Source: Heptranchias perlo (lineage: Eukaryota). From it: DNA of 64,000 nt. The DNA lies in contig NC_090359.1 of NCBI RefSeq assembly GCF_035084215.1, positions 11,842,001-11,906,000 of the forward strand, given 5' to 3'. The notes beneath the pieces were generated by a model, which did no database searches, was not told the DNA's origin, and saw nothing but the letters and a program-made list of their open reading frames with translations. Every line of letters starts with the position of its first letter. Positions within the stretch are counted from its first letter, which is position 1. The position numbers and the translations under genes were made by a program. Positions 4,466 through 63,100 of this stretch are shown here, piece after piece.

Positions 4466-4632
4466 TTTTTTTTTTCTTTTTTTTTTGTTTTAGCACTCTC
4501 CTCACAGGCCTCTCACTGGGAAGTTTTCTCTTTTTTTTTTGTTTTTGTGTATTAGGCCCCCCTTTTATAAGAAGGGGGGGGTGTGGGGTGTGCTTAAATA
4601 CTAAAAACCAAATAAACCAAAACCAAGTGTTC
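4466..4632 (-). mobile_element. Tx1 3' end with a double A-rich tail, running into an assembly gap
   Basis: T-tract, ~40 nt unique sequence, second T-tract, then the Tx1 3' UTR (aggccccccttttataagaaggggggg...aaccaagtgttc), then Ns. Confidence 0.85.
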
Positions 4633-4783
4633 NNNNNNNNNNNNNNNNNNNNNNNNNNNNNNNNNNNNNNNNNNNNNNNNNNNNNNNNNNNNNNNNNNNN
4701 NNNNNNNNNNNNNNNNNNNNNNNNNNNNNNNNNNNNNNNNNNNNNNNNNNNNNNNNNNNNNNNNNNNNNNNNNNNNNNNNNNN
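4633..4783. other. Assembly gap (N run)
   Basis: Run of Ns between two Tx1 3' ends. Confidence 1.
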
Positions 4784-4882
4784 NTTTTTTGTTCTTTTTT
4801 CTAATTAGGCCCCCCTTTTATAAGAAGGGGGGGTGTGGGGTGTGCTTAACAACTAAAAACCAAACAAACCAAAACCAAGAGT

Positions 4883-59387: not shown

Positions 59388-60117
59388 GACTGAGAGAGCC
59401 ACACCCACCCCAAGTCTCGGGCCTACTGATGAATTTAGGCCTTTTTTTTTAAAAGAAGCCCTGAGGAAACCTCTCTCCCCGAATCCCAGAGCTTGGTTGG
59501 GAGAGGGGCCCCTTTGCTGGTTTTATTTCCCCCAGAATATCCGGGAGAGCAAGAGAAGGTGGGAGGGATTAATGGTGGAATGGGAAGGAGGGAGTCTGCA
59601 GGGGTAGGCTGCTGCAGAAGTGGGTGGAAGAGGGGCGGGGTTGCACCTTAAAAGGTGGATCTTATTCTGCCTGTCTTCCAGTGGGCAGGGGGAGGAGATG
59701 TCTTCCCCTAGACAGCTGGAGCTGCCTAGGCTCAGTCCTCCAAAGATTGAAAAAGTAACTTCACCCAGGCAGCTCCAGCTGTCCTGGGCCAGACACTTGG
59801 GGGAACCCCCTGTCCTCTAAGGTCTTCTTCCTCCCCCTACCTTCAGCCGACGCACCTCACTGCACCGACCTCCTCTTCCTCCCTCTGTTCGGTGTCGCAA
59901 ACCACCAGCAGCAGCAGCACAACCCCTCCCGGCTGCTGTTTGGTAGTATTCTTCTTCTCCCTCCCTCCTTGTTGATGGTGGTTTCTCCTTCTCCTTCTCC
60001 TTGACTCAGAGGGACCCGGGCAAGGGCCTGCTCTCTCTGCTCTCTCTGCTCTCCACTCAATGGCAGTTCAGCCACAAACAGCTCCAATGCCGAGCTGGTG
60101 TGTCTCAAAGACAACCC

Positions 60118-63100
60118 AACAGAGATGTTATCAGATTCAGTTTGAGGACTCAATAACTGGGATGACATTCGAGGCTATTGTTGGATCCAAGGAGCCGATC
60201 AGTCCTTTGAGGAAAACAACAGCAATGACATCACAGAATAATCATCCAATCCTGCCTGTATTCCAAAGCTCTGATTGGCTCTGGGAAACAACTCGCCCCC
60301 TCTCTCCTTTGTTAATTGGTGCCTGGATTCATGGAAGATTCCTGATTGGCTATCAGGGATTGTCAATCATCATTGGTGATGTCATACCCTGTGTAAATGC
60401 AGGCTGTCCCAGTCGTATAAATACAAGAGCTTGTGAGGGAAGAGGTTAGGTTGTTTCATGCAGTGGTGTTTGAAGTGAGGTTTCTGTTAACAGTAAAAGT
60501 TAAGATGGTTTCCCAAGTGTGTCAGAACTGCCACAAGGAGTGTGAGGATGGTGTCAACAAGCAGATCAATATGGAGCTCTATTCCTCCTATGTTTACCTC
60601 TCCATGGTGAGTCTTGTACTGTCTCTTCATTCTGAGAACTTGGAATTTTTTTTTTGTTCAGAATTGGATTCAAATTACATTTCTCTTGAGTTCCTTTTCC
60701 TCCCTGGGGTGGAATATCTTTGGGCAGTGAGTACTTTGTGTGTAATATGGGGTGATCTTGTGTTAATGGACTGCTCCTTACAGCACCTGCACTCTATTGA
60801 GGGGCTTAATATATGAACCTGGCTCAGCTGCTGCTTGAATTTGTAAGAGAAGAGCAGAAACCTGGTCAAGTGCTTGTCAACAATTGACTTAAAAGGTTCA
60901 GTTTCAATGGGGTGACTGTTGCCAGTGAAATGTTGACAGGTCCTCACTAGTTTTTGTGCATTTTTACTTGCAGGTGAAGTACTATGAGAGTCCTAGGCTT
61001 TTGTCACTGCCTTGATCCTTAACACAGATTGTGGAGTTTGAAACTTCTGGAATATAAGAATTTTCTTGTTCCTTGCCCAATTTTAGATTAGAATAGCAAG
61101 TAGAAGGAGGGGCTACTTACTGTAAGTACAGTTTAGTTTGCGTTACTAGTTAACATAGTATTTTTTAAAAGAAACTTTGAGCACTCATTAACTGGGGAGG
61201 GGAGAGAAAGTTAATTGTATGTCGGTGAGATCTAGGTCTGACATGATTCTGTTTAAAATTCCAGTCCTATTACTTTGACCGGGATGATGTTGCCCTGCGT
61301 CACTTTGCTGAGTTCTTCAAGGAGCAGTCGCATGAGGAATGGGAGCACGCTGAGAAACTGCTGAAATTCCAGAATCAGCGTGGAGGCCGAATCATCTTGG
61401 AGGACATCAAGGTTTGTTCATAGAATCAGGCCATTTGGCTCATAGTGTCTGTGCTGGCTCTTTGAAAGAATATCCAATTAGTCCCTCGTGCCCTGCTCTT
61501 TCCCCATAGAGCTGTAAATTATTCCTTTTCATGATTCTATACATAAAAATCTGTTCTGACAGTTGCTATTGAATCAGCTTCCCTTTCAGGCATTTCATTC
61601 CAGATTGTAACAATTCACTGTTTATATATGAAATCTCTATCTTCCCTCTGGTTCTTTTGCCCATTATCTTCAATGTGTGTCCTCTGGTTAATGACCCACC
61701 TGCCAGTTGTTGAGTTCATGACTGGGCCAAATGTAATTTATTGAGGCTTATTTTCATATTGAATGATTGGTCCCCACTGCAGCCTCTATCCAGCTTTCAG
61801 AATGTGGAAAATTTCTCCACAGCAGAGAAGATGTTTTCTCATGAATGAGCCACATGTTCTACATTATAACTGAACAGAGTACTTGTTGCTAACATCAGGG
61901 CAAAAATCAATTTTCTTCCACTCTCCAGTCATCCTCTTGTTTCAGGCTAGTTTGAGATTAATACTGCATGGGATGCAGATGGGAGCTTGAGCATTTTGTG
62001 ACTTGAAAGACTTCCCTTTTCAGAAGCCAGAGCAGGATGAGTGGGGCAATGGTCTGGAGGCGATGCAGAGAGCTCTGCAGATGGAGAAGGATGTGAACCA
62101 GAGTCTGCTGGATCTGCACAAACTGTCCACTGAGAGGACAGACCCTCATGTAAGTCCTTAATGCATCAGTGGCATTTAGCTTTTGGGTTTATTTTTAATT
62201 TGGGATTGTGTAATTTAGCATTGTCCTCTAAAATCACATCAGACTGAATGCAGCTCAATACTTACCATTTCTAAATCTGAGGTTAGTTAAATCTACTGAA
62301 GGTGAGCATTAAAATCTGTCCTTGAAATCAATCTGTTTCAAGGGTTGAGATATCTTGGGCTTGAAGGGAACCTTCAAATGGATACTGACTTTAGGTGAGG
62401 GACTGGGGCAGGGCAGCATTTATTTTCAATACCAGTGGCTGGGAGGGCAAGGAGTTAGATCTCGTAGTCTCTTGGCCATATTTTGTAATGAGACCTTGAG
62501 TATTCCCAGTAGGGAAGTGAGATTAAAGGAACCTAATGATTCAAGTAGCTAGCTTGATTTTTATTTTTCCCTTTCCAGTTGTGTGACTTCCTGGAGACCC
62601 ACTACTTGGATGAACAAGTGAAGATGATCAAGAAGCTTGGAGATCACATCACCAACCTGAAGAGACTGGGAGCCCCTGAGAATGGCATGGGAGTGTACCT
62701 GTTTGACAAGCACACCCTGGGGGAGGAGTGACTGGACTGTTGTCCATGTTGCAGATATTCAACTTGTGTATTGAAGTTTTATGTTGCCATCTCTCTGAAC
62801 TGGGAATGGAATTCAAAGTCTAAGATTAACTTCCAAACATTGTAGTTGAGTGTTCTTGCAGCTGAAATAAAACATTTTGATGTTGAACTGGTTCCTTTTC
62901 TTCAGTAATTGAGCACATTCTAACAGCAATGCACGTGGCCTTGCGTCAAACAAAAAAAAATTCTAAGAAATAGGTTGTCACCGTGATAAAATCTGATTTG
63001 TTTGGGCACATGGATGTTTTAACCCCTTCCCCTCCAGAAGGCTTAATTTGGTTTTGTAGCAGCCGAGGATGGCCATCAGGCCAAAATTAGATTTGTACCT

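Follow-up and report, generated by a model that had tools for sequence, protein, structure and literature searches.

Background

Retrotransposons without long terminal repeats (non-LTR) that belong to the Tx1 clade have been described to insert into transposons, U2, U5 and 5S sequences, satellites and microsatellites, a family being taken as target-preferring when >20% of its flanks are of one kind (PMC4494074, in its sections on targets). Here we report on a Tx1-clade element of Heptranchias perlo, starting from a stretch of 64,000 nucleotides (the window; G000:C38:11842001-11906000) in which five long copies lie on the minus strand, each with its 5' end against the promoter or upstream DNA of a ferritin gene, as an earlier note on this DNA had described. 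Like Xenopus Tx1L and the crocodilian Tx1-Mar and SINEU, for the last of which PMC4494074 considers both insertion in tandem and transcription that may come from the flanking target, the element is found in tandem, and its second open reading frame (ORF2) is 50% identical to that of Xenopus Tx1. Unlike those elements, as they are portrayed in the relevant sections, it has as hosts RNA polymerase II (Pol II) promoters of protein-coding multigene families, without a common site, and most of its examined copies are dispersed.

With its restriction-like endonuclease, R2 uses a single exact site in the 28S rDNA; the element studied here would share with it, and with SVA_F1, a borrowed transcription, and differs from R2 in having an apurinic/apyrimidinic (APE) endonuclease, many sites and several hosts. 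R2 depends on host transcription, and cotranscription can strengthen targeted integration (PMC4494074, citing others), a passage of the same source giving R2, SVA_F1 and SINEU as precedents for transcription driven from the flank. The human SVA_F1 subfamily is driven by a host promoter region, that of MAST2, and short 3' transductions of SVA keep the target site duplication (TSD) of the parent (excerpts of PMC12593883). SVA_F1 is non-autonomous and arose once via splicing, whereas an autonomous long interspersed nuclear element (LINE) with what appear to be repeated host changes and returns is found here. In Schizosaccharomyces pombe, DNA-binding proteins of the host guide Tf1 to insert no farther than ~500 bp from Pol II promoters (PMC7175516), and the present element is perhaps like it in location. 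However, Tf1 is an LTR element with an integrase, its own promoter and >95% intergenic insertions, whereas here a minority of copies is at promoters and tethering is hypothetical. Drosophila HeT-A carries strings of tags, separated by oligo(A), that record its lineage. It forms head-to-tail arrays in which promoter function comes from DNA upstream of a copy (sections of PMC5537684); in that case the promoter is the 3' untranslated region (UTR) of a neighbour at the telomere and the tags are 5', whereas in our case tags are 3' and host DNA would provide the promoter. The open-licence literature, that is, other than Repbase, Dfam and subscription journals, rendered no Tx1 element or vertebrate LINE with sources at egg-gene promoters or with region-guided target-primed reverse transcription (TPRT), and the accessible sections of the whale shark genome paper name Tx1 repeats with no mention of a ferritin/ZP array.

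The element and its full-length copies

Full-length copies of the element are fused by their 5' ends to ferritin and ZP3 genes and to one subtelomeric segment (host 4), and were formerly fused to a ZP4-type gene, and tags transduced into 3' tails show indirectly that these promoter-resident copies are sources of the dispersed ones. We think it probable, with some reserve, that this is a young, sequence-relaxed Tx1 LINE that lives on borrowed germline promoters and re-inserts in a regional, non-sequence-specific way.

ORF2 contains an APE endonuclease domain (PF03372, residues 6-227) and a reverse transcriptase (RT) domain (PF00078, residues 512-762). Its closest named relative is the 149 kDa protein of Xenopus Tx1 (54% identity over residues 1-800, 50% over 1299 aa); turtle and Xenopus Tx1 families are 50-57% alike to it, and the most identical of the homologs listed is from a stingray (71% identity across 54% of the query). 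No Pfam match at E<=0.001 was obtained for ORF1 of copy 2; a zf-CCHC domain scored E=0.0017 and 18.8 bits, under the 20.8 cut-off, the pattern CxxCxxxxHxxxxC being visible by eye. By these similarities the element is a Tx1-clade non-LTR retrotransposon. It stands outside the sequence-specific Tx1 families (Keno, Mutsu, Dewa and Kibi type), as its TSDs show no conserved target and each host has several sites. An R2-like single-site element with a restriction-like endonuclease was rejected, since an APE domain and many sites were found. Subfamilies A, B and C have a long 5' UTR in common past ~nt 160, and a third head type, more diverged than A or B, is joined to ZP3 exon 1 in the sense orientation (L291; L numbers denote loci and C numbers chromosomes or contigs of the 3.25-Gb genome).

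The five long copies of the window are 95-99% alike. Copies 1 (4785..11516), 2 (11727..18507) and 3 (18718..25528) stand head-to-tail, have the same head junction, J1, and are separated by two 210-bp duplicates of the ferritin-1 promoter (11517..11726 and 18508..18717), which run from the first element base to 43 nt before the ferritin-1 ATG and contain two CCAAT boxes, the TATA region and the start of the 5' UTR. The ferritin-1 promoter and 5' UTR themselves (25529..25781, plus strand) contain, at -43 from the ATG, the main re-entry site. Copies 4 (48670..53235, with a composite tail) and 5 (53417..60099) have the J2 head, located ~405 nt before the ferritin 5 ATG, where an 18-nt linker of unassigned source (60100..60117) lies between the element and the ferritin-5 upstream DNA and promoter (60118..60504, plus strand), 99.5% like those of ferritin 3. 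Copy 5 is the sole long copy with both ORFs open, copies 1-4 being broken: copy 1 by a stop in ORF2 and a frameshift in ORF1, copy 2 by a frameshift in ORF2, with ORF1 open (680 aa), copy 3 by a frameshift in ORF1, with an open ORF2 of 1301 aa encoding APE endonuclease and RT (18872-22777, minus strand), and copy 4 by deletion of ORF2 residues 449-1191. The 30 B heads discussed below were sorted by eye.

A search for the A-type 5' motif rendered 59 matches genome-wide, 58 of them inside ferritin/ZP3 arrays: 38 on C38 (9.3-17.7 Mb), another 12 within the ferritin cluster of C43 and 8 on two ZP3-bearing scaffolds, with 1 elsewhere. Fifty of the 59 lie within 0.29% of the genome, where 0.17 would be expected. 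The lone dispersed full-length A copy (L283, C30:36.83 Mb), at an unrelated locus and with a TSD of ~205 bp, starts with 9-10 nt of ferritin-promoter DNA. Among the 30 A heads that were read, 14 had J1, 15 J2 and 1 a J3-type leader. Although ferritin genes 1, 4 and 5 do have the Tx1 neighbour that the earlier note ascribed to them, the view that these represent independent insertions did not stand, because copies 1-3 share J1, copies 4-5 share J2, and one or the other is present in 29/30 heads genome-wide. The same applies to the minus-strand fragment near 43 kb, taken as a separate event: 27 of the 43 C38 ferritin genes have this junction at the same position, ca. -296, which indicates one old insertion amplified along with the array. 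Of the 16 C38 ferritin genes that are not of type 4, 10 have J1 or J2 and 6 are empty, these being the only empty ones among the 43. A full-length antisense copy is found within 1 kb of 11/43 of these genes, and a young sense copy of none, so that the non-random, head-to-head orientation claimed for ferritin is strict. Three or four distinct backgrounds of ferritin promoter, C43-type ones included and spread over two chromosomes, carry J1 and J2, indicating that heads move between gene backgrounds, through homologous leader joining or through conversion, either of which may account for the data.

Ferritin is not the sole host, as had been supposed, since ZP3 and ZP4-type promoters and host 4 are used as well. 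From 38 matches of the B head type 30 were read: 7 are head-to-head with ZP3, 4 in tandem with a piece of ZP3 promoter, 5 in tandem with a short head and 13 at host 4, and 1 is a tag. In 22/30, a relic of ~100 bp from a ZP4-type promoter is present, though these heads are now sited at ZP3 or host 4. The relic belongs to the trefoil-ZP family (ZP1/ZP4-type, Pfam Trefoil), whose promoter motif has 70 matches, mostly on C23, some of them being tags. At L249 and L253, elements depart in both directions from one ZP3 promoter. As in SVA_F1, host sequence is fixed at the 5' end of both subfamilies (J1/J2 in A, the ZP4-type relic in B). Most of what was captured is promoter DNA in antisense, and this speaks against a host exon having been taken up by splicing. 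A 5'-inverted copy is found at the TATA box in 8/20 ZP3 genes (L194, L196, L197, L199, L200, L203, L209, L210) as the result of one event, the coding region being split from its E-box.

Host 4 is a multicopy segment near chromosome ends (L241, L242 and L271-L281, on C13, C16, C23, C32, C37, C49 and scaffolds) with three CAGCTG E-boxes, a stretch in common with ZP3 intron 1, and an AT-rich satellite 5 kb off. No gene was found within 10 kb behind it. Host 4, the commonest source of tags, may be a candidate unannotated germline promoter.

The arrays are large, with 161 matches of a ferritin exon-1 motif and 157 of a ZP3 motif (C38 9.1-17.9 Mb, C43 4.27-4.78 Mb, C23 2-30 Mb), and ZP3 and type-4 ferritin genes are often ~9 kb apart, as a repeating unit. 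Two lone exon-1 matches without the array promoter (L129 on C40, L130 on C5) are possibly retrocopies.

Dispersed copies and their tails

The census of the element, based on an exact 25-nt 3' motif, gave 496 matches genome-wide. The first 100 positions listed, in positional order on C1-C8, supplied the 91 3' ends that were examined, the other 396 positions being outside the listing; of these 91, 87 had a poly(A) tail and 53 a TSD of at least 9 bp. TSDs are mostly 12-15 bp and share only a starting purine, and the copies are mostly 5'-truncated and dead. None of the 91 was seen in the surroundings of a ferritin gene, and a comparison of the 100 listed 3' motif positions with the listed matches of ferritin exon 1 (100/161) brought no two of them close together. 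The background density predicts ~285 of the 496 matches, so that up to ~210 may be clustered. Dispersal, together with TSDs without a consensus, means that sequence-specific targeting of ferritin fails: most examined copies have unrelated flanks. For a general promoter bias of the dispersed copies there is at most a weak sign, enrichment being weak for CCAAT and absent for CpG (19 versus 21 per kb). Two copies (L012, L028), as seen in their 3' flanks, occupy nearly the same site of a repeat with a putative hammerhead-like motif, and at L014-L017 (C14:36.19 Mb) the element 3' end plus tail is tandemly repeated with a spacing of 956 bp.

Of the 53 TSD-bounded dispersed copies, 28 show, within the TSD, poly(A) runs with non-A pieces in between, and in 20/53 these tags map to host windows. 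When 37 tags were compared at their first bases with a 34-kb set of host windows, 24 matched, versus 6/740 length-matched control pieces from flanks, and about nine further tags match hosts by eye. The classes mapped among the 87 tailed copies are host 4 (10), ZP3 in sense (7) or antisense (4), ferritin in antisense (6), ZP4 in antisense (5) and B head (1); one tag was assigned to host 4 by comparison with other loci of the set. Two of the ZP3 sense tags may belong to host 4 as well. Tags with CCTTTTGAT were considered as ZP3 intron 1 and reassigned, since the host-4 leader fits better and the segment is common to both. One copy (L183) carries most of ZP3 exon 1, and an older tag class derives from the promoter of another ZP3 group on C38. 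The poly(A) tails are often broken by single G residues, and the point at which a tag stops varies. This may be due to mixed tailing in oocytes or to re-adenylation of RNA trimmed there.

Tag class follows the haplotype of the element. In a comparison of the last 130 nt of the element, nearest neighbours agreed in tag class in 52% of 41 copies versus 15% when permuted (p=0.0002), and in 59% versus 19% for the young copies (n=27, p=0.0002); one copy was dropped as too short, and one duplicate and two weak calls were left out. This favours 3' transduction from resident copies over template jumps to abundant RNAs and, as the tags map to hosts, indicates that the source copies sit at these promoters. 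Identical tail and tag are found at unrelated loci (L007, L012, L017), and tags of different hosts are nested in single tails (L232, L017, L152), which implies more than one landing of these lineages in host regions.

Re-entry into host promoters

Resident loci were selected via a motif or by similarity, so that the number of junctions among them is not a rate, and the joints between copies 0 and 1 and between copies 4 and 5, which contain N, were left out as 3' junctions. In the selected loci 68 distinct tail-plus-site junctions were found. Twenty-five have their entry point in the ferritin leader, always in antisense, near -43, -52, -111 to -117, -140 and -171 to -175 (one further position being a parsing artefact), when 0.006 3' ends would be expected at background density in all ferritin promoters (161 x 400 bp). 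The others enter ZP3 in sense, at the TATA box or a little above it (9), host 4 (8), the ZP4-type promoter (3), the element's own 5' end (2) and ZP3 in antisense (1), with 20 unmapped, three of which correspond by eye to a further ferritin site and five to the B head. At L093 and L124 a young 3' end is joined to an old fragment in register, by homology.

Unstranded contigs of four runs from one sample, whose RNA nature is a guess, contain spliced ferritin joints, one run being far deeper on ferritin exons; they were not used as evidence, and neither were two low-depth contigs from the same runs that span J1 and may stem from DNA carry-over.

Other features of the window

At the left end of the array there is a truncated ZP3-type egg-coat gene without promoter and start codon (2030..4465, minus strand, the lower bound approximate and set by eye). 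Its exon 1 is reduced to the final 19 nt (4447-4465, minus strand), at which the tail of a Tx1 3' end, copy 0 (4466..4632, minus strand), ends; this tail is composite, with a tag at ~4492-4524 that matches the subfamily B 5' head. The ZP3 neighbour noted previously is therefore present, but it is not intact. An ATG at 4465 as the ZP3 start codon was ruled out, since the Tx1 tail ends inside exon 1, and so was a natural bidirectional pair of ZP3 and ferritin 1. The leftmost tail, ending in ZP3 exon 1, makes the array couple a ZP3 gene to the ferritin promoter; the junction arose by rearrangement or by an insertion joined through homology, and the two genes do not share a promoter. Exon 1 of a paralog matched ZP-N weakly (E=0.004, under the cut-off).

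The five ferritin genes are on the plus strand, and all have an open ORF of 173-176 aa, as had been claimed: ferritin 1 (25782..31323, 173 aa, four exons with GT..AG joints), ferritins 2 (33521..36254) and 3 (38481..40707), both with empty promoters, ferritin 4 (43540..46092) and ferritin 5 (60505..62731). Upstream of ferritin 4 there are two old Tx1 3' fragments, one in the opposite (sense) orientation (42701..42780, plus strand), common to most type-4 ferritin genes, and the one at -296 (43070..43244, minus strand, ~80% identical), whose tail has a ZP3-type promoter tag. The window ferritins (25529-62731) have short 5' UTRs, the TATA box is altered in genes 1 and 3, and a residue difference separates ferritins 1, 4 and 5 (EEWEH) from 2 and 3 (EEREH). 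An Rfam scan of the window at the gathering score detected no family, and hence no U2, 5S or iron-responsive element match.

Origin of the pattern

Transcription of the element from the host promoters in oocytes is the most likely source of its RNA; it would be divergent at ferritin and ZP3, and in sense for the subfamily in ZP3 exon 1. That ferritin-resident copies are among the sources of dispersed ones lends indirect support to the idea of the earlier note that these promoters drive the element. ZP3 and ZP4 are oocyte genes under E-box/CCAAT control, while oocyte activity of these ferritin promoters is a guess. Weak polyadenylation would append a short piece of flank to each daughter, the tails being in this way a log of earlier residences; the pattern is seen in the tails, the mechanism is proposed. 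New copies would come back into the same stretches of a few hundred bases, at many positions, in regions that are probably open, or bound by a tethering factor, where the ribonucleoprotein (RNP) acts. Nicking would be regional, and the end of the cDNA may pair, downstream of the nick, with a leader or a copy already resident there, a pairing that would duplicate the promoter and build head-to-tail arrays and that L093 and L124 fit. Segmental duplication and recombination, in part visible in the loci, would then multiply and reshuffle the arrays.

Several points weigh against this reading. Among the C38 genes, no empty ferritin promoter was seen to have received a solitary new insertion bounded by a short TSD, so that entry may need a resident copy. 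The ~205-bp TSD of L283, at an unrelated locus, implies that the 210-bp duplicates alone are no proof of a promoter leader on the RNA. An internal promoter in the 5' UTR could transcribe the element instead, and CCAAT is weakly enriched at dispersed sites (11 in 23.8 kb versus 8 in 41.1 kb, p~0.05). Furthermore, the choice of host windows was made with the tags already in view, 14/42 tag-class labels in the haplotype test were set by eye, the resident loci were chosen through a motif drawn from the same window, their counts are inflated by segmental duplication (the tails of L069 and L076 are near-identical), and every count comes from one genome.

The arrays could also have formed by source selection without targeting, that is, by random insertion, with masters that came by chance to lie at strong germline promoters, the remainder being made within the arrays by gene conversion and unequal crossing-over. 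The few founding junctions, the duplicated arrays with near-identical tails, the single inverted copy amplified in the ZP3 genes and the rearrangement that brought ZP3 and ferritin 1 together in the window agree with this. On the other hand, different poly(A) tails at many sites of one leader need separate TPRT events, and nested tags require repeated landing, when ~0.03 3' ends would be expected in all 373 one-kb promoter windows; we regard this explanation as rather unlikely. An internal promoter of its own, the egg-gene arrays giving open chromatin and shelter from silencing and the leaders being occasional read-through, is improbable in view of the single full-length A copy in 59 away from the hosts, the 100-bp foreign promoter relic kept by B and the strict orientation at ferritin, although internal promoters of the L1 type are well established, the 5' UTR common to A, B and C past ~nt 160 is long, and the leader of the J3 daughter has just 9-10 nt. 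It has also to be considered that RT might start on short adenylated RNAs of strong oocyte promoters and then jump to the element RNA, which would suit tags that are short, have variable non-A ends and often no poly(A) signal. This seems very unlikely, given that tag class tracks element haplotype, that residents share their entry sites (ZP3 TATA, ZP4 CCAAT, ferritin -43 and -315, host-4 sites) and that unrelated loci repeat one tail together with its tag. Finally, a Tx1 endonuclease specific for ferritin promoters, with independent insertions in a safe harbour, is scarcely credible, the strict head-to-head orientation and the intact ferritin ORFs notwithstanding, in the face of dispersed copies without consensus, other hosts, inherited junctions and a broken ZP3.

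The earlier note saw a real and unusual pattern but framed it too narrowly. As for the harbour itself, the ferritin ORFs are open, as it would require, but its safety is doubtful, since exon 1 of the ZP3 gene of the window is broken and 8/20 ZP3 genes are hit at the TATA box.

Within the reading of borrowed promoters and regional re-insertion, a bolder version can be put forward tentatively, as a possibility that we would not yet favour: a LINE without a promoter of its own, relayed between oocyte promoters (ZP4-type, ZP3, ferritin), its RNP steered by an oocyte transcription factor or by homology of the captured leader, which homes between gene copies and whose recombination helps to drive egg-gene arrays of 50 to 160 copies, the tails recording the host switches.

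Conclusions

The master copies of a LINE, and their access to the germline, are usually hidden, whereas here about half of the TSD-bounded dispersed copies are tagged, and the tags name their sources, promoters of egg-coat and ferritin genes. If the proposed transcription is true, this LINE gains germline expression by occupying germline promoters instead of carrying one, and if the region-guided targeting of TPRT is also true, it would be a mode new for Tx1 elements and vertebrate LINEs in the literature covered. The reading of such tags would moreover be a route to oocyte-active promoters in unannotated genomes.

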